Below are positions 51,456-60,930 of a stretch of 64,000 nucleotides of DNA, piece after piece. A program made the translations under genes and the position numbers. Source of the DNA: Candidatus Latescibacterota bacterium (lineage in GTDB: Bacteria > Latescibacterota > UBA2968 > UBA8231). The number at the start of each line of letters is the position of its first letter. Position 1 is the first letter of the stretch. The notes under the pieces are model-generated. The model saw only the letters and a program-made list of their open reading frames with translations, was not told the DNA's origin and ran no database searches. The DNA is taken from positions 64,001 to 128,000 of the forward strand of contig CBDAOB010000004.1 of assembly GCA_965197905.1 (NCBI GenBank). The letters run 5' to 3'.

Positions 51456-51707
51456 CTCCGTGAGATCGGCTAGCCGGTTGAGAGATTTCCGCATCTCGGC
51501 GGAGATTTCGACCGTCTCCGCATCCCGACCCTGTTCGTGCACCATCTTTCCAACCTCGGCGAACAGGCGCTGAATTTGTTGCTTGGCGACGGCCACATCT
51601 AAGCGGGCGCGCCCTTGCTGGGCCAGCAGCTCGGCACAATCGGCAGCCGCGATCAACCCCTCCTCCAACCCCTTTCGGACATTTCCCCAAAAATCTTCTG
51701 TCATCAC
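51387..51707 (-). CDS. Small coiled-coil hypothetical protein
   Basis: FWGNVRKG..A...A..GRARL....I..LF.EVG pattern; start overlaps the BMC gene stop. Confidence 0.8.
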   Translation of the reverse strand: MMTEDFWGNVRKGLEEGLIAAADCAELLAQQGRARLDVAVAKQQIQRLFAEVGKMVHEQGRDAETVEISAEMRKSLNRLADLTEELKEKEEILNDLRTEQEGAGGD

Positions 51708-52183
51708 TACTCCTCCTGCCAGAGTCGCTGCAACTCTTCGATCAATTCTTTCTTGTTGGCACGCGATACGTTGCGCCCGGTAAGTCCGGCACCCGGTGTT
51801 TGACGAACGAGTTGGCGCAAACGCGCCACCGCCATATTCTTCAGCGTGTCTAAGGTCGGGTGTTGGTTTGCCAACGGATCCAACCGGGATGCGCCCGAGT
51901 TGGAGTCTATCGTGTCTTGAAGTAATCGAACGACGTCGGCGTGGGGGCCGGGGATGACGTGGCTACTGATAACCTCGGTCACTCGACGCGCTGCGTCCGC
52001 GCCGGCGCGAACGGCGGTCTGAACCGATGCTACATCCCCCGAAAACCGAATGGATACCAGACCACCGCCGATGCGTTCGAACTGAAGCAATTCTACGTTG
52101 GCTGCTTTGGCGGCTGCATCTGCCGCTTCCACAACACCTGCCATCCCTCGGGTTTCGATGAGTCCTATGGCAGATCCGGCCAT
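51707..52183 (-). CDS. BMC-H microcompartment shell protein with C-terminal helical (Rho_N/HeH-like) extension
   Basis: AIGLIETRG...VEAADAAAKAANV, GDVASV, HVIPGPH; tail LKNMAVARLRQL...ANKKELIEEL. Confidence 0.93.
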   Translation of the reverse strand: MAGSAIGLIETRGMAGVVEAADAAAKAANVELLQFERIGGGLVSIRFSGDVASVQTAVRAGADAARRVTEVISSHVIPGPHADVVRLLQDTIDSNSGASRLDPLANQHPTLDTLKNMAVARLRQLVRQTPGAGLTGRNVSRANKKELIEELQRLWQEE

Positions 52184-52528: not shown

Positions 52529-53872
52529 ATGGTACACCGGTTTGTGATCTGGTCTCGACTTCGCCGCACGGCACTTGCCTGGGTGTTGTGTCTCGGGGCT
52601 TTGGCTTTGGCATTTACCCACCGAATTGCCGGCGAGAGTGACTTGGTGCTCTTCGTTTTGGCGGGCACCGCGCTCCTCTCTCTTGCTTTGTTGATCCTCG
52701 GTGCGGTCGAGGGAAATCTTCTTCCCGGAACCGCAGTACGGTTGTTCGCTCTTTTGTTGCTCACTTCGGCCGCCGGTTCGGTCCTACTCAATGATCAGGT
52801 GCCCTGGGCAAATTTGATCCTTCTCGCCTGTCACCTCGCTCTGTTTTGGGTGGGTTGGGGAGTGGGCAGGCAGGGTGAGGGGCTGTCTCAACTCGGGGGG
52901 GGTTTTATCGTTTGCGCGGTGTTGATTGCCGCATATGCAGTGGCGCAGTTCTATCGATGGGACCCAATGCCCGCAAATGTACAGTTTCCTGATCGCATCC
53001 TCTCGGTATTCGCAAATCCGAACCATTTCGGAAATCTGATGGCGGCTTCGATGCCCATGGCAATGGCCTGCCTTTTAAGAGCGGAATCCAGGCGTCTCAT
53101 TGTCACATGGCAACTGGTCTGCGCCGTGTTGTACGCGGGGCTTCTTATGGCCGGTAGTCGCGGGGCTTGGATCGCGGGGTTTGCCGGTGGGCTGGTGGTG
53201 GCAGGAGGGTACTTGCTGCACTGGCGCCGCGGCGTGCTCCCCTTGCGGCCTGTCGTGATTCTGAGCACTCTAGGCCTACTGGCGGTCGTTACGCTGGGGG
53301 TGTCGCGCCGACCGGTTCTGACGCGCGCATCCGGCCCTGTCACGGTGGCAGAACGCGCTTTGAGTACGACCCAGATCGTCGGACCCGCCGAAAAACGCGA
53401 CGCCACCGTAAACCACCGCTATTTCATCTGGGGCGTGGCCGCGAGAATGATCGCTGCCGCTCCTGTACTCGGTCATGGCTACGGGGACTTTGCCTACACC
53501 TTTGCCTCCTTCAGGGATGATCCTGGGGGGGCGACTGAGCTAGCGCGACTGAGCTGGAGCCAGCGGCGCGATCCCACCGCATACGCCCACAACGAATTCC
53601 TGCACACCTGGGTCGAAACCGGATTGTTGGGGCTGACCGGTCTTGTAGGCCTGATAGCAGTCGCGTTGACGAGATGCTGGAAGAACCTCATGCTGCGCTC
53701 CGAAAGCTTGTACTACTGGGGAGCGCTGGGAGCGTTCGGGGTTATTCTGATTCACAGCCTCGTCAGCTATCCATTGCGACTTCCTCTAAATGGCAGCATT
53801 TTTTGGATACTACTTGGTATTACAATAGGAATCGACCACGGGACGAGACACTCATCCAAGCTGCGTCAATAA
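52529..53872 (+). CDS. O-antigen ligase / O-oligosaccharyltransferase family membrane protein
   Basis: FANPNH, GSRGAW, R..IW, PVLGHGYG.F, AHNEFLHTWVETGLLG. Confidence 0.9.
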   Translation: MVHRFVIWSRLRRTALAWVLCLGALALAFTHRIAGESDLVLFVLAGTALLSLALLILGAVEGNLLPGTAVRLFALLLLTSAAGSVLLNDQVPWANLILLACHLALFWVGWGVGRQGEGLSQLGGGFIVCAVLIAAYAVAQFYRWDPMPANVQFPDRILSVFANPNHFGNLMAASMPMAMACLLRAESRRLIVTWQLVCAVLYAGLLMAGSRGAWIAGFAGGLVVAGGYLLHWRRGVLPLRPVVILSTLGLLAVVTLGVSRRPVLTRASGPVTVAERALSTTQIVGPAEKRDATVNHRYFIWGVAARMIAAAPVLGHGYGDFAYTFASFRDDPGGATELARLSWSQRRDPTAYAHNEFLHTWVETGLLGLTGLVGLIAVALTRCWKNLMLRSESLYYWGALGAFGVILIHSLVSYPLRLPLNGSIFWILLGITIGIDHGTRHSSKLRQ

Positions 53873-53925: not shown

Positions 53926-53952
53926 TAAAGGGAATCAACTCTTATCCGATAA
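53926..53952 (+). promoter_or_regulatory. Sigma28 (FliA)-like promoter
   Basis: TAAA-N15-TCCGATAA. Confidence 0.72.
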
Positions 53953-53958
53953 TACAAA

Positions 53959-54172
53959 ACAAGATTACTTGATACTAAGTTCTTTTCTTCCAGTAGCTGA
54001 TTGAACCTCCGCTACTGCTACCCGATCGATCATTTAGTCTTTGCGGATTCGATTGCAGATCCGCACCCGGACAACCCGGAGTTTCCCCACTCCCGTCCGG
54101 TCCCGCGAGTGCCCTAATACCGCGGATGTGAAAAATGCCAGCGCCCTGCGTGATCTTCCGCAGGGCGTTTTG
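53959..54172 (+). ncRNA. Candidate structured small RNA
   Basis: Promoter, four consecutive hairpins and a terminator, with no credible ORF; ends approximate. Confidence 0.5.
54141..54172. terminator. Terminator hairpin, possibly bidirectional
   Basis: GCGCCCTGCG-TGATCTTC-CGCAGGGCGT then TTT; A5 shortly upstream. Confidence 0.7.
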
Positions 54173-54189
54173 CTTGTACGCCTTTCAGA

Positions 54190-55344
54190 TCAGGAGGTTT
54201 CGGTCAATTTCCGCATGGTGGAGTGATGATCCATGCCGGACGCGCGCAATCGATCGTATCTGGACATATCGATGCTCTCCCATCTTAGGAAAGAGCGAAT
54301 GTCGTAACGGCCGGGGACTTCAAGCTTGAGCTGGCCTTCGGCGATCATCTGCTCAAGAGGATATCCGCCTTCCTCCAGGGGCAGGCGGATCACCTTGTTC
54401 CTGCGCGCGGATTCGTAGAGCGCCATCATGATTTCTAGGGTCGCTCTCGCCTTTTCCACCGAACCCCGGTGTTCCGGACCGCCATCTAGCCAGCCTGCGA
54501 GTTCCTTGATTTGATCGGCGTTCACTCGCCCACCCATACCGTACCCTTCCTCTTCGACCAGCACATGCTCCTGCCAACCGGCAGCATTCGCATTCAAGAG
54601 GCGCACACTGCGTTCGTCGGTTTCCAGAATTCCGTCGGTCCCGCGGATGAGAAACCCTCCTGCAGTAGCTCCTTCTTGACGGAGGTCCGACTGGACAAAC
54701 AATTGTAGGCCGGCGTCCATTTGCACCAATGCCATGCAACAGTCTTCAATGGGGACGTCGCGTTCGTATCGATCCGTGCTTCGTTGCACGGCTCCCATCA
54801 CCCACTCCGCCGCCGGGTCCTCTAGCACGAACCGCGCCCCGTCGATGACGTGGGTGCCCCAATTGGCGAAACCGCTCGCTACGCAACACTCCACCATTAC
54901 GGGTTTCCCTATGGCCCCTTCGCGGATTAAGTCGCGAGCTCTCTCCCATCCCACCGTGAACCGCCGCTGGTGGCCAATGACCAACAGAGTGTCATGCGAC
55001 CGGCACGCATCGATCATCAGGTCGGCCGACCTCAATCCCAAAGCCATCGGTTTTTCGCAGATGACAGCTTTGACGCCGGCTTTAGCGGCGGCCACCGTGC
55101 CCTCCTGATGGACGAGATGCCAGGTACACACGATCGCAATATCTGGCACCTGGTTGGAGAACATCTCATCCGTAGTAGAAAAGGCGCGGGGAACACCGAA
55201 CTCCTCAGCAAACCGTATCCTCGCCGCTTCTACCGGTTCGACGACAGCGACTAGCTCCACTTCGTCGGCAAGTTGGCACCCCTCCGCGTGCGACCGGCCG
55301 ATCGTACCACACCCGACAATGGCAACTGTATACCTGCTTCCCAT
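54190..55344 (-). CDS. Gfo/Idh/MocA oxidoreductase
   Basis: IVGCGTIG, CEKPMA, GHQRRF, GTHVID. Confidence 0.93.
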   Translation of the reverse strand: MGSRYTVAIVGCGTIGRSHAEGCQLADEVELVAVVEPVEAARIRFAEEFGVPRAFSTTDEMFSNQVPDIAIVCTWHLVHQEGTVAAAKAGVKAVICEKPMALGLRSADLMIDACRSHDTLLVIGHQRRFTVGWERARDLIREGAIGKPVMVECCVASGFANWGTHVIDGARFVLEDPAAEWVMGAVQRSTDRYERDVPIEDCCMALVQMDAGLQLFVQSDLRQEGATAGGFLIRGTDGILETDERSVRLLNANAAGWQEHVLVEEEGYGMGGRVNADQIKELAGWLDGGPEHRGSVEKARATLEIMMALYESARRNKVIRLPLEEGGYPLEQMIAEGQLKLEVPGRYDIRSFLRWESIDMSRYDRLRASGMDHHSTMRKLTETS

Positions 55345-55427
55345 ATTGCTCTCCTTTGGCACTGTCCATGTGCGCGCTTAGCTTAGCTACTGTTCGAGCC
55401 AATTTGGTCGCAAACCAGCAAAACCCT

Positions 55428-55856
55428 ATGGATGATATCACTGTTACTCCGCACCTCACGATCCCTGTGTCAGAGCTCAGATTCAGCTTCGATCGCAGCC
55501 CGGGTCCCGGCGGTCAAAACGTAAATAAGTTGAACACAAGGGTGGAGTTGTGCTTCGATGTGCGCAACAGCCGGTCCATTACGGAACCCCAACGCGCGCG
55601 AATCGTTGAAGGATTAGGACGCCGGTTGAGTAACGACGGGCTCTTGCGCATCCGTTCCTCCAGGCACCGAACTCAGCTGCGCAACAAGCAGGATTGTTTG
55701 GAGAAGCTTGCCGCGAAACTTGGAGAGGTGCTAAAGCCGCCGCCTGCCAAACGAAGACGGACGCGGCCGGGTCGTGCTGAATTAACACGGCGGCGAGAGG
55801 CAAAACGGCAAAATTCCGCCAAGAAGCGGCTGCGGAAACGTCCCGATTTCGATTAG
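55428..55856 (+). CDS. arfB: Alternative ribosome-rescue factor B
   Basis: RSPGPGGQNVNK, R.Q.RN, basic C-terminal tail. Confidence 0.95.
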   Translation: MDDITVTPHLTIPVSELRFSFDRSPGPGGQNVNKLNTRVELCFDVRNSRSITEPQRARIVEGLGRRLSNDGLLRIRSSRHRTQLRNKQDCLEKLAAKLGEVLKPPPAKRRRTRPGRAELTRRREAKRQNSAKKRLRKRPDFD

Positions 55857-55968: not shown

Positions 55969-56859
55969 ATGAACAGAAAAAGAAAATCGGTTCGAGCCGA
56001 AGAAAACGATGAAAAGGCCGTTTTGGCAATACCGCCTACATCGGATCTCACCGATCTTTATTGGCGCGATATCAAGGAAGCCCAAACCTTATCTCGATCC
56101 GAAGAGGTTGAGCTGTTCAAACTAGCGAAATCTGGCAACGAAGAAGCCCGGCAGAAAATCATTTTGTCGAATCTGCGTTTTGTGGTGCGTGTGGCGCGGG
56201 AGTATAAGGATTACGGGCTGTCGTTGGTGGAGCTGATCTCAGAAGGAAACTTCGGTCTATTGGAGGCGGTCAAGCGGTTTGATGAAACACGCGGGTTCAA
56301 GTTCATCACCTATGCCGTTTGGTGGATTCGACAGGCCATACTCAAGGCGCTCGCCGAACAGGGAAAGATCGCCAAACCCCCCCTCAGCCAAATCAACGAT
56401 CAGCAACGAATGGACAAACAAGCCGGAGCTTTGGCACACCAGCTGGGTCGGTCCCCCACGTTCGAAGAGATCTCCGAGTCCGTGGATATCAGCGCTGAGC
56501 GAACGAAAAACGCGTGGGTTGCGGCGCAGCAGGATCTTTTCCTCGATGCACCGGCCTTTCAAGATGAAGAGGCTCCCCTCATGACGGTGTTCGCCGCCGA
56601 TCAGCCCGGGGGTGATGACGATGTGATGCAGGGCCAGTTGGAACACAGTGTCCAGGCATGTCTGCAGGTGCTGGACGACCGCGAGTACCAGATCGTGTCT
56701 TCCTACTTCGGCTTCGACGATCTGCGACCCATGACCCTGGAGGAGATCGGGGAAACCCTGGGTGTAACCCGGGAACGAGTCCGGCAACTGCGCAATCGAG
56801 CCCTCGACAAGCTGCGCGTGCAGTGCGGCGAGCTCCTGCTCGAATTTTCCAGCAACTAG
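55969..56859 (+). CDS. Sigma70-family (RpoD/RpoS-like, lacking region 1.1) sigma factor
   Basis: SNLRFVV, LISEGNFGL, RGFKFITYAVWWIRQAI, TLEEIG...VTRERVRQL. Confidence 0.95.
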   Translation: MNRKRKSVRAEENDEKAVLAIPPTSDLTDLYWRDIKEAQTLSRSEEVELFKLAKSGNEEARQKIILSNLRFVVRVAREYKDYGLSLVELISEGNFGLLEAVKRFDETRGFKFITYAVWWIRQAILKALAEQGKIAKPPLSQINDQQRMDKQAGALAHQLGRSPTFEEISESVDISAERTKNAWVAAQQDLFLDAPAFQDEEAPLMTVFAADQPGGDDDVMQGQLEHSVQACLQVLDDREYQIVSSYFGFDDLRPMTLEEIGETLGVTRERVRQLRNRALDKLRVQCGELLLEFSSN

Positions 56860-58049: not shown

Positions 58050-58124
58050 GGGCCGACCGGCACTTCGATTTTTGTCTATCAGGTTCGCTCCCTTTGCGAC
58101 CGGCTTACAACCGGGCCTCCCGAC

Positions 58125-59032
58125 TTAGGCCAGAATATCCAGGTGACCGGCACCACGCTGGTCAGATCCGACTCCTGGCGATCCCCAAGCAACTCCAGCA
58201 CCTGTGCTGCATCTCCGGCATCAGCCTTTGAACCTGTCCCGCTAGTACTGCCCCCGGGTGGTTCTGATTCCGGGTCCACGAATCCGGTTGTGCCATCACT
58301 GGCTCCAGCCGCGGTGTGGCCGTTCGCCGGCTCTTCTTCGCGATCCTGTTTCGCAATCTCCCGGCGCGCTTCGGCTTCCATGCGCGAAGCTTCGGCGGCG
58401 ACTTGTCGGTCTTGGCTGGAGGGTTCGGCAGGGGCCAACGCCGCACGTTTAACCACCTGTGCTTTTTGAATGGTTGCCTCAGGATCGCCCTCCACCGCTG
58501 AGGTGTCGATGCTAACCTCCCCGCCCACTGCATACCTGCGACTGTCCGGACCGCGCTCGTACTCGTATTTAGGTCCGCCGCGGGAATAGGGACCGGCGGC
58601 AGCTACGTGGGCTTGCTCGTGGGCGCGCACGTCGCGGTCGCGGTCCTTCAGTTTTTCCACCTCAGCTTGTTCCTCCTCGCTCAATTCCTGCGAGTCGCCT
58701 GCCGGAGACGAGCTCGTGCCCGCTTCCGGATCAGCCGCAGCCTCGGCACCTTCGTTGGACACCTGTTTCGAGCTGGAAGGTGAGGCAAGTGGTGGCTGTG
58801 GAACCTGGGGAAGCAGAGCGAGAATCTCGGATGCTCGATGAGCCGTCTCCCGGTTGTCTCGGTGTTCGACGGTGGACAACGGTCCGGACCTGGCGTCCAG
58901 TTTCGAGTCGGAAACGATCGCGGGCTCCTGGGTGTCACTCGAGCCACCAATTTCGCGTCGGGGCACAGCCGGCGAAGGGACGAAACCTGACGACAGATTA
59001 ACGCCTGTAGATATAGAATTCAGAGATTGCAG
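58125..59032 (-). CDS. SprA-related (CJM1_0395-like) protein; start and end inferred
   Basis: LKDRDRDVRAHEQAH, YERGPD.RRYAVGGEV.ID, AALAPAEPSSQDRQVA; probable CTG start after GGAG; probable 3' frameshift to GHLDILA*. Confidence 0.8.
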
Positions 59033-59064
59033 ATCGGTAAGCTCCGGAAAACGCCTATCGCTTA

Positions 59065-59091
59065 TTATCGGCAGGCGTCTGCTGAACTTTA
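59065..59091 (-). promoter_or_regulatory. Sigma28 (FliA) promoter, exact consensus
   Basis: TAAA-GTTCAGCAGACGCCT-GCCGATAA on the minus strand. Confidence 0.85.
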
Positions 59092-60930
59092 ACGGGCGGG
59101 TTGGTTTTTGGAACCGCCGCCGGTGAGTTTTGGCGTCACCAGGCGAAGCTGCCGAAGCGGCTCCTCGAGGCTGAGGATCGCGTCGCTCCAGAACTCGGGT
59201 GATTCGAGGTCGCAGTCGATGGTGTTGCGGGCAACGTTCTCCGCGGAATCGCTTCCCGTGGACTTGAGGAAGTCGGCATACCGGGGCAGGAACGAGGTCC
59301 CTTCCTGACGAAACCTGGCGTACAAGCCTCGACTGAGCAGGAATCCAAAGGTGTACGGGAAGTTGTAGAAGGTCGTGCCGGTTATGTAGAAGTGGAGCTT
59401 GGACGCCCAGAAATAAGGGTCCTCGCCCCCTTCCTCCAACAGGTTGCCGAAGACGCGGCGTTGGGTTTCGCACATGAGCTCCTTCAACCTGCTGACGCTG
59501 ATCTCGCCCTGTGCTCGTTCTTCGTACATGGCTTTCTCGAATTCATACCGCACGGGTATATCGAGCAGGTAAATGGCGGCGTGCCCGGTCTCCATGTCGA
59601 GAATCGCCGCTTTCTGCTGGTCATCGACGTCGGGTGCATTCAGGATCCCGTCGGTCAGAATCATTTCCCCGAAGGTGGAGGCCGATTCCGCGAGGGTCAT
59701 GGGGTAGAGCCGCGCCAATACCGGTTGACTGCTCATGACGAAACTGTGGAAGGCGTGACCGACCTCGTGCGCCAACGTGCGCACGTCGCCCATGGTTTGA
59801 TTGTAGGTCATGAAGATGCGGGATTCTCCGGTGAGTAGTGAGCCGGTGCAGAACCCTCCCGGCCGTTTTCCGGAGCGCGGCTCCCACTCGATCCATTCCC
59901 GTTCGTAGACCGAGTCCAGGAAGGTTCCCAGTTCGGGATACGTTTGGTGGAACGCGGTGCCCACGAGCTCCTTTCCCTTTTCCCAGTCGACGGGCTCCTG
60001 ATCTCCCACCGGTGAAGGCGCGCCAAGATCGTACCAGGCGATAGCCTGCGTGTTCATCAGCTCCGCCTTGAACTGCAGAATGCTCCGGGCTACGTCGATC
60101 TTTTCGGTAATGGCGGCGAACATCGCGTCGAGTGTAGCGTGTGAGATGGCCGCATCGAACAGGGCGACGTCCAAAAAATCTTCTATGCCGCGGTGGCGAT
60201 TGAGGGTTAGACGCGTGCCCGAAATGGCATTCAAAGCGGCGGCTGCAGCGTCCTCCACTTGAGACCAGGCGAGGTTGCCGCCGTCGAAGGCGGCGCGTCT
60301 GACGTCGCGATCGGGTTTCTCCATCAAGGAGCGGCGCTGCGACATGGGAAGACGCTCCCGGCGCCCGTCGGGGTAAGACATTTCGAATTCTAGTTTGCCC
60401 GACACGGTGTCGTAAAGACGCCCCCACGCACCAATTCCGTCTACAGCCAGATCTGCAGCCAGCTTCTCCTCGTCGGGCGACATGGTCTGTTGCGCACGGT
60501 GATGCAAGCGTTTGATGAAGAACGCGAAAGGAGCTACGGCCGGTCTGCTCGCGAACGAGACGAGCAGGTCAGCGCTCGCACTTCTGAGCCCACGGAGCAG
60601 CTCCACTTCCAATTTAGAGAATTCCGCACCGAGAAGATCGAAGGACGACTCCGCGGCGGCGTACTCCTCGTTGTGGGCGTCCGCGGCGGTAAGACACCCG
60701 ACGTATGAGCCCAAGTGGGAGACACGGGCGAGGAGGTCTTGGTAGTCCAAGAAGATCGCTTCCCACTGGCTGTCGTTGTCCACGGCAAGTGCTTCGAGCG
60801 CGGCTGCCCGACCGCGCAAGCCCGCAAGGTCTGCCTCTAACGCCTCGCGGAAATTAGTCATCTCCGGTCCATTGAACGTTGGAAAGTAGCTCTGCAGATC
60901 CCAATTCATTATTACCGGTGTTTCGGACAT
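59089..60930 (-). CDS. pepF: Oligoendopeptidase F (M3B)
   Basis: WDL, GKRPGGFC, TLAHEVGHAFH, LAESASTFGE, FYNFPYTFG. Confidence 0.93.
   Translation of the reverse strand: MSETPVIMNWDLQSYFPTFNGPEMTNFREALEADLAGLRGRAAALEALAVDNDSQWEAIFLDYQDLLARVSHLGSYVGCLTAADAHNEEYAAAESSFDLLGAEFSKLEVELLRGLRSASADLLVSFASRPAVAPFAFFIKRLHHRAQQTMSPDEEKLAADLAVDGIGAWGRLYDTVSGKLEFEMSYPDGRRERLPMSQRRSLMEKPDRDVRRAAFDGGNLAWSQVEDAAAAALNAISGTRLTLNRHRGIEDFLDVALFDAAISHATLDAMFAAITEKIDVARSILQFKAELMNTQAIAWYDLGAPSPVGDQEPVDWEKGKELVGTAFHQTYPELGTFLDSVYEREWIEWEPRSGKRPGGFCTGSLLTGESRIFMTYNQTMGDVRTLAHEVGHAFHSFVMSSQPVLARLYPMTLAESASTFGEMILTDGILNAPDVDDQQKAAILDMETGHAAIYLLDIPVRYEFEKAMYEERAQGEISVSRLKELMCETQRRVFGNLLEEGGEDPYFWASKLHFYITGTTFYNFPYTFGFLLSRGLYARFRQEGTSFLPRYADFLKSTGSDSAENVARNTIDCDLESPEFWSDAILSLEEPLRQLRLVTPKLTGGGSKNQPAR

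Follow-up and report, generated by a model that had tools for sequence, protein, structure and literature searches.

The window analysed here, a stretch of 64,000 nucleotides from a Candidatus Latescibacterota bacterium (genome G000, 91% complete), almost certainly encodes a real small RNA, which very probably pairs with the leader of one flagellin mRNA encoded far from the RNA locus. As judged by their sequences, the RNA and this leader have changed in step over 23 pairs from nine genera. Sequence by itself seldom establishes what a bacterial sRNA targets, and here the coordinated change of RNA and mRNA is seen in an uncultured group. It is rather likely that the RNA is a stand-alone sRNA, transcribed with sigma28, which would pair in trans with the leader, block translation and cap or delay that flagellin. 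From the comparison of genomes we infer transcription, pairing in the cell, repression and an effect on the filament.

The RNA gene and its occurrence in the family

The RNA gene occupies a gap between a plus-strand Wzy_C gene and a minus-strand Gfo/Idh/MocA gene that converge on it (Table 1), and both the gap and the near-consensus sigma28 promoter pointing into it are as described in the original prediction. The sigma28 gene that the prediction presupposed is also present, FliA being encoded in G000 with a match above the family cut-off. The sigma28-type pattern occurs at 31 sites in this genome, compared with 9–12 in three shuffles, and six of these sites precede flagellin genes. Another consensus sigma28 promoter is found at 59065–59091 (minus strand) ahead of a frame of the SprA-related family (58079–59473, minus strand), which by this sequence may be a member of the flagellar regulon. 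G000 has no fewer than 13 matches to the sigma70 family that span most of the model, and one of these genes lies in the window (55969–56859). The window also contains an isolated BMC-domain gene (51707–52183, minus strand) and an RF-1-domain gene (55356–55856, plus strand), the product of which we take to be an ArfB-type rescue factor.

Metagenome assemblies from four runs confirm the DNA, and one contig spans the whole stretch unbroken. The RNA gene is single-copy in G000, where three other short matches are ascribed to chance, and on this ground a repeat or mobile element is rejected. In line with the original prediction, which recognised no known family, Rfam 15 at the gathering threshold gives no match in the window or in 12 related loci; five sub-threshold matches, the best scoring 14.8 bits against 45, are rejected as chance. 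No description of the RNA was found in the accessible papers covered by a literature search. The RNA apparently represents an undescribed, stand-alone conserved sRNA family.

Among 60 relatives BLAST reached only two congeners, both with the same gene context, and the search of the family therefore required profile models. Profile R1, a sequence profile that includes the promoter, matches in 26 of the 76 family genomes; three of its 29 places (L067–L069) were junk second matches and are dropped. Model R2, which covers the 5' domain and is free of the promoter, matches in 33 of the 76, and the total of 34 includes G092, in which a contig end truncates the gene and R1 alone gives a match. The RNA is thus present in 34 of 37 flagellin-bearing genomes and in none of the 39 without flagellin, counts taken over kin and hence not over independent cases; the three flagellin-bearing genomes without a match are 58–76% complete. 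Within genera the RNA occurs only in the flagellated subset (g13, 4/31; g18, 4/10; g9, 1/2), and in g13 all four RNA-bearing genomes are among the five flagellated ones. Conservation in relatives, which the prediction had named as a check, is therefore found. R2 has no match in 87 genomes from the other families of the phylum, 29 of them with FliA, and no RNA copy is found with it across 72 flagellin-containing loci. A promoter-free pattern gives 24 matches in metagenomes, 21 of them distinct and some repeating the genomes, and sigma28 boxes stand 11–12 nt upstream in 23 of these, the 24th being cut by a contig end.

The genes next to the RNA differ among relatives. The Gfo/Idh/MocA gene at the 3' side is swapped for other genes in most of them, and the upstream gene cluster is the same in 22 of the 34 genomes with the RNA, as found with crude ORF picking. 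This common upstream gene family could mean that the element belongs to its neighbours, as a 3' UTR or as a terminator region, but the RNA gene has its own promoter boxes and varying neighbours, is duplicated in tandem in G008 and tracks the flagellin genes. A 38-codon frame in G000 could likewise indicate the mRNA of a small protein, but an insertion of 8 nt in G001 and a deletion of 53 nt in G002 disrupt this frame, and no reading frame is conserved across the RNA homologues. The presence of csrA and the several hairpins of the RNA would suit a CsrA sponge of the CsrB/RsmZ type; unlike these sponges, with their repeated GGA loop motifs, the RNA has GGA in the predicted loops of its 3' part in 0 of 31 homologues. 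Taken together, the sponge, UTR and small-protein explanations are largely refuted and extremely improbable.

Tandem second or partial copies of the RNA gene, ~290 nt apart, are seen at L287 (G008), L065 (G031), L365 and L376. In G028 the flagellin matches are weak or interrupted and FliA and CsrA are not found, yet the RNA gene and its promoter boxes are kept, which reflects either flagellar decay under way or a noisy assembly.

Predicted structure of the RNA

Table 1. Features of the RNA locus, with positions numbered from the first nucleotide of the window
Feature	Position	Strand	Remarks
sigma28 (FliA)-type promoter	53926–53952	+	-35 box 53926–53930, -10 box 53945–53952, spacer 15
Predicted small RNA gene, ~217 nt	53959–54175	+	5' end inferred from the -10 box
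Stem P1, 5' strand	53962–53973	+	closes the target-binding domain; from alignment pairing
Conserved 14-nt near-palindrome	53967–53980		alternative small hairpin or DNA operator
Hairpin with site B in its loop	53991–54017	+	genus-specific in this form; from the fold and comparison with relatives
Site B	53997–54010	+	antisense to Shine-Dalgarno and spacer of the target flagellin mRNA
Site A	54019–54031	+	13-nt perfect complement of the target leader
Stem P1, 3' strand	54029–54040	+	overlaps the end of site A; from alignment pairing
Variable hairpin	54042–54065	+	partly deleted in G002
Hairpin with C-rich loop 54083–54089	54067–54100	+	deleted in G002
Variable hairpin	54103–54125	+	from the fold
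Intrinsic terminator	54138–54175	+	hairpin 54140–54169 and T-rich tail; also found by terminator scan
O-antigen ligase family gene (Wzy_C)	52529–53872	+	upstream neighbour, context only
Gfo/Idh/MocA oxidoreductase gene	54190–55362	-	convergent neighbour, context only

The homologues of the RNA are 154–225 nt long. Each contains a conserved 5' domain, closed by stem P1 and holding the anti-Shine-Dalgarno motif and a second conserved block, followed by a variable 3' part, where 29 of 31 homologues have hairpins with C-rich loops ahead of the terminator. The terminator is possibly shared with the convergent gene. In G000 the plus strand folds with a z-score of -5.55, none of 200 shuffles being as good, compared with -3.15 for the minus strand. 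The mean z-score over 31 homologues, a set that leaves out G022, G095 and G033, is -5.9 for the plus strand versus -4.4 for the minus strand, and the plus strand is the better one in 26 of them. A second copy of the anti-Shine-Dalgarno motif stands directly before the terminator in L062, L066, L284 and L291, which belong to genus g18 and G009.

All four hairpins listed in the original prediction, as well as the terminator, are found in their places. The first hairpin is present in this form only in this genus, however, and the stem that is common to the family, the longer-range P1, was missing from that list. In a plain alignment 84.6% of the P1 cells are paired, and three pairs show two-sided changes, which is close to the shuffles. 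With 42 distinct rows, an alignment fitted to the structure model itself, 85.7% of the cells are paired, four pairs are changed on both sides, and two-sided changes occupy 16 cells versus 7.8. RNAalifold gives no consensus fold in the 5' domain from a 25-row 5' alignment. At least 5 bp of P1 appear in the single-sequence ensembles of 28 of 31 homologues, and the P1 mismatches, with G-U to A-C at 24 to 18, do not discriminate. The support that these sequences lend to the predicted stem P1 is moderate.

Almost every homologue has the near-palindrome downstream of the promoter. Its hairpin has 94% of cells paired and shows no two-sided change in the alignment, and from its sequence it is possibly an operator of a flagellar regulator. 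Similar near-palindromes in G000 (C5:1963467, C5:1330546 and C3:258332) include one downstream of a flagellin promoter and one downstream of another promoter of sigma28 type.

Complementarity to one flagellin leader

The target is the leader of the flagellin gene that starts at G000:C5:1991383 (minus strand) and encodes 398 amino acids. This gene is the last of three tandem flagellin genes and has its own sigma28 boxes. There are ten Flagellin_N matches in G000, one of which is a flgL-like gene, so that nine flagellin paralogues are counted; fliW adjoins csrA behind the flgL-like gene, and csrA is ~14 kb from the target gene. The codon bias of the target flagellin, at the 32nd percentile, does not mark it as the major flagellin, and the label “major” is therefore not claimed for it.

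The complement of site A, perfect over 13 nt, is located at G000:C5:1991468–1991480, ~95 nt upstream of the start codon. That of site B, at G000:C5:1991397–1991384 (minus strand), comprises positions -14 to -1 and forms 14 bp, including two G-U pairs. Between the two matching blocks lies a 65-nt spacer that is left out of the match. The original prediction of a translational regulator with C-rich, anti-Shine-Dalgarno-like loops has now gained a target leader, and the anti-Shine-Dalgarno loop corresponds to site B; site A, the most specific pairing element, had been overlooked, and the role of the downstream C-rich loops is only partly supported.

Between the sites the leader contains two hairpins with CsrA-type GGA loops. 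ANGGA motifs are present in these loops and at the ribosome-binding site, and CsrA and FliW are encoded, as far as sequence tells; the leader looks similar to a CsrA-repressed flagellin leader. A pattern for the leader with GGA hairpins is found in 22 of 168 genomes of the phylum, once in each, and all 22 hold the RNA. The 23rd RNA-leader pair is from G036, the leader of which has ambiguous bases. CsrA is found in 29 of the 76 family genomes, and csrA in 22 of the 23 genomes with the target. As an element in its own right, the leader (G000:C5:1991562–1991383, minus strand) and its orthologues L322–L343 form a conserved cis element with the order upstream Shine-Dalgarno-like motif, site A, two GGA-loop hairpins, Shine-Dalgarno; Rfam gives no match in three target-leader loci.

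There are 56 other matches of at least 13 nt to the site A region in G000. A single 13-mer is therefore not rare genome-wide, and the case rests on the relatives. Among the flagellin-family leaders listed, which for several genomes are those among 150 of 256 matches, it is the cognate leader that has the best duplex energy in 17 of 18 genomes (second in G021) and in all five held-out genomes, where the RNA was found afterwards, that is in 22 of 23 overall. Among 5497 crudely called leaders of G000 the target leader has rank 2, a rank based on segments picked after the target was known.

Over the 23 pairs, eight columns of site A are paired in 70% or more of the cells and include two or more kinds of Watson-Crick pair. 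Its duplex averages -25.0 kcal/mol for cognate partners and -18.0 kcal/mol for partners swapped in from other genera, and the permutation of partners (one genome per genus from nine genera, 50 draws of 20000 permutations) gives a median p of 5e-5, which is the floor, and a maximum of 1e-4. The six core columns of site A serve as the alignment anchor and are paired by construction; of the 69 cells in the three columns just outside the anchor, 67 are paired, and each of these columns shows two or three pair types. Three columns of site B reach the same degree of pairing with two or more kinds of Watson-Crick pair, the energies are -19.6 for cognate versus -18.2 for other-genus duplexes, and the permutation p has a median of 0.003 and a maximum of 0.0125. 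After the cost of opening both RNAs the net energy is negative at site A in 23/23 and at site B in 21/23 pairs. Site B is weak in G007, G021, G031, G036 and G013.

The held-out genomes include G008, where the site A core is altered on both partners, and G009, with 16 and 11 perfect pairs. In the 18 genomes the internal mismatches of site B are seven G-U and one A-C, while those of site A (three to two) are uninformative. Covariation, which the prediction had proposed as a check, is seen between RNA and leader over the 23 pairs, and the comparative evidence supports the predicted idea of an approximately 210-nt, sigma28-driven, trans-acting RNA with an anti-Shine-Dalgarno loop in a flagellar regulon.

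The same complementarity would arise if the RNA gene and the leader shared a DNA motif, such as a protein site in opposite orientation, or if a fragment of the leader had been copied. The core of site A is nearly palindromic, and a separate conserved dyad is present in the form of the near-palindrome described above. This explanation is nevertheless very improbable: there are two separate matching blocks from which the spacer is left out, lineage-specific changes are mirrored in both partners over up to 18 nt, site B accepts U opposite the G's of the Shine-Dalgarno in 15 cells, and the RNA has its own stems and terminator.

Proposed regulation and related systems

In the proposed mechanism site A would dock ~95 nt upstream of the start codon and confer paralogue specificity, because the Shine-Dalgarno core is common to several paralogues, while site B would cover the Shine-Dalgarno and spacer and block 30S binding, with the two GGA-loop hairpins of the leader looped out between them. 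As sigma28 would transcribe both the RNA and its target, the two would form an incoherent feed-forward loop that limits this flagellin, capping or delaying it. In addition to the FliW-CsrA checkpoint, the RNA would determine how much of this flagellin enters a filament built from several flagellins.

This arrangement resembles the Vibrio sRNA FlaX, which is described as having three pairing sites on the 5' UTR of a single flagellin, blocking 30S binding and altering the filament composition (PMC11879080). As in that description, the 5' UTR involved belongs to one of several flagellin paralogues, and more than one pairing site is predicted on it, one of them over the Shine-Dalgarno; there are two sites instead of three, a third, loop-to-loop contact being only partly supported. 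The RNA differs from FlaX, as the latter is described, in origin, sigma factor and chaperone: it is a stand-alone sigma28 locus far from its target, no ProQ match is found in the 91% of the genome covered by G000, in contrast to the ProQ association of FlaX, Hfq is found in 0 of 76 family genomes, and the target leader carries CsrA-type hairpins. It most likely works as FlaX does without being a FlaX member, as judged from the description of FlaX. This suggests that multi-site sRNA control of one flagellin paralogue arose independently of FlaX, without Hfq and on a leader that, by its look, is under CsrA control as well.

FlaX is also described as activating some flagellins and repressing another (10.64898/2026.08.28.747715), and the same pairing could here have an opposite or indirect outcome, in which the flagellin mRNA is activated or stabilised, for instance by displacement of CsrA from its GGA sites or by opening of an inhibitory fold. 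The two GGA-loop hairpins, the GGA-containing ribosome-binding site and the occurrence of csrA with the target are compatible with this, as is the complementarity of the RNA 3' part to the first GGA loop, which is 6 nt or longer in 16 of 23 genomes versus 5.5 expected. On the other hand, site B lies on the Shine-Dalgarno and covaries with it, and the second GGA loop shows no such enrichment of complementarity in the 23 genomes (11 versus 11.6 expected). With site A blocked, the ribosome site is on average as accessible as before (0.45 to 0.45), and just 3 of 23 leaders show more than 4 bp of cis pairing between site A and the ribosome-site region, so that activation through a cis-inhibitory fold is unsupported. 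With site B placed on the ribosome-binding site and no opening caused by a block of site A, repressed initiation is the most probable outcome; from these sequences the net effect on the target is likely to be repression, and activation is unlikely.

In staphylococcal RNAIII and RsaE, unpaired C-rich loops bind to ribosome-binding sites rich in G, in some cases by a loop-loop contact. The RNA differs from these by the lack of a match in Rfam and by its regulon and phylum. The first leader hairpin has GGA in its loop, and 7 nt of this loop are complementary to the RNA's own C-rich loop in the third hairpin; G014, G025 and G063 have matches of 8–10 nt to the second GGA loop, and G002 has lost the hairpin that bears the C-rich loop. 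On these sequences a loop-to-loop contact on a CsrA site may be regarded as a lead. A more far-reaching, and doubtful, idea is that the RNA acts as an antisense counterpart of CsrA, which would clamp both ends of the region with CsrA sites, place its C-rich loops on the GGA loops and evict or replace CsrA without Hfq or ProQ. If so, one flagellin would be silenced independently of the FliW checkpoint, CsrA would be released for other mRNAs, and an RNA arm would be added to the FliW-CsrA-flagellin switch, so far described as controlled by proteins.

In that switch the flaA leader of Campylobacter jejuni and the hag leader of Bacillus subtilis are described as controlled by proteins together with the mRNA that titrates CsrA (PMC4894983). 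The target leader is similar to the CsrA-bound flaA leader of that account in its GGA-loop hairpins and GGA-containing ribosome-binding site, and differs by the RNA proposed to pair with it, no leader-pairing RNA being described in the sections of that account considered. In the case of SR1 and ahrC mRNA of B. subtilis, CsrA can promote the pairing of sRNA and mRNA (PMC6546359). By analogy CsrA is a candidate chaperone for the pairing of RNA and leader, although RNA and target are unrelated to the pair described there and the RNA has no GGA loops.

Other flagellar sRNAs bear less similarity to the RNA. FliX, MotR, UhpU and FlgO of E. coli are described as sigma28-dependent, UTR-derived and Hfq-bound and as pairing within the fliC coding sequence, in an organism with one flagellin only; FliX lowers flagellin (PMC10578931). 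The RNA shares with them the sigma28 promoter, here recognised by sequence, and is unlike them, as they are described, in its stand-alone locus and in the absence of Hfq from the 76 family genomes. CJnc170, or FlmR, of C. jejuni is described as an unprocessed FliA-dependent transcript of 47 nt that reduces filament length, with the RpoN-dependent flgE, flaB and flgP as suggested targets (PMC11187230). FliA-type control in an organism with a FliW-CsrA module is common to both, while the predicted target here is a sigma28 flagellin leader with a far-upstream site.

The sharing of one leader by an sRNA and CsrA, as well as the setting of filament composition in bacteria with many flagellins, becomes testable with this system, and the RNA-leader pairs offer a natural compensatory set for a reporter test in a laboratory host.

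The RNA is also kept in 11 of 34 genomes where the target leader is not found. Seven of these are also without csrA; given its distance to the target in G000, missing assembly is plausible. The tandem flagellin cluster is interrupted by the end of the contig in G065 and G022, and contig ends together with absent csrA explain many of the missing targets as gaps. In G015, which consists of two contigs, the third tandem flagellin gene is absent from its place. Four g18 genomes keep site A, and no complement of it was found there ahead of a flagellin gene. A search for the complement of site A in five target-less genomes returns the opposite strand of the RNA itself and 14 other places. In the target-less genomes other targets or a relic state are possible.

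A regulator with several targets, of which this flagellin is one and where the anti-Shine-Dalgarno and C-rich loops act on other flagellar or G-rich ribosome-binding sites, would be compatible with the preferred mechanism. Several flagellin paralogues share the Shine-Dalgarno core, with 7–9 nt of pairing to site B, and both the retention of the RNA in the 11 genomes and the frequency of C-rich loops would fit. Since no second target with a site A match was found ahead of a flagellin in the five genomes searched, and a 14-nt match in the coding region of another flagellin is shortened in G002, such a wider role is judged improbable. Downstream of the second tandem flagellin of G015, at L314, there is a short stretch, given no score by R2, that resembles the RNA core in the mRNA sense.
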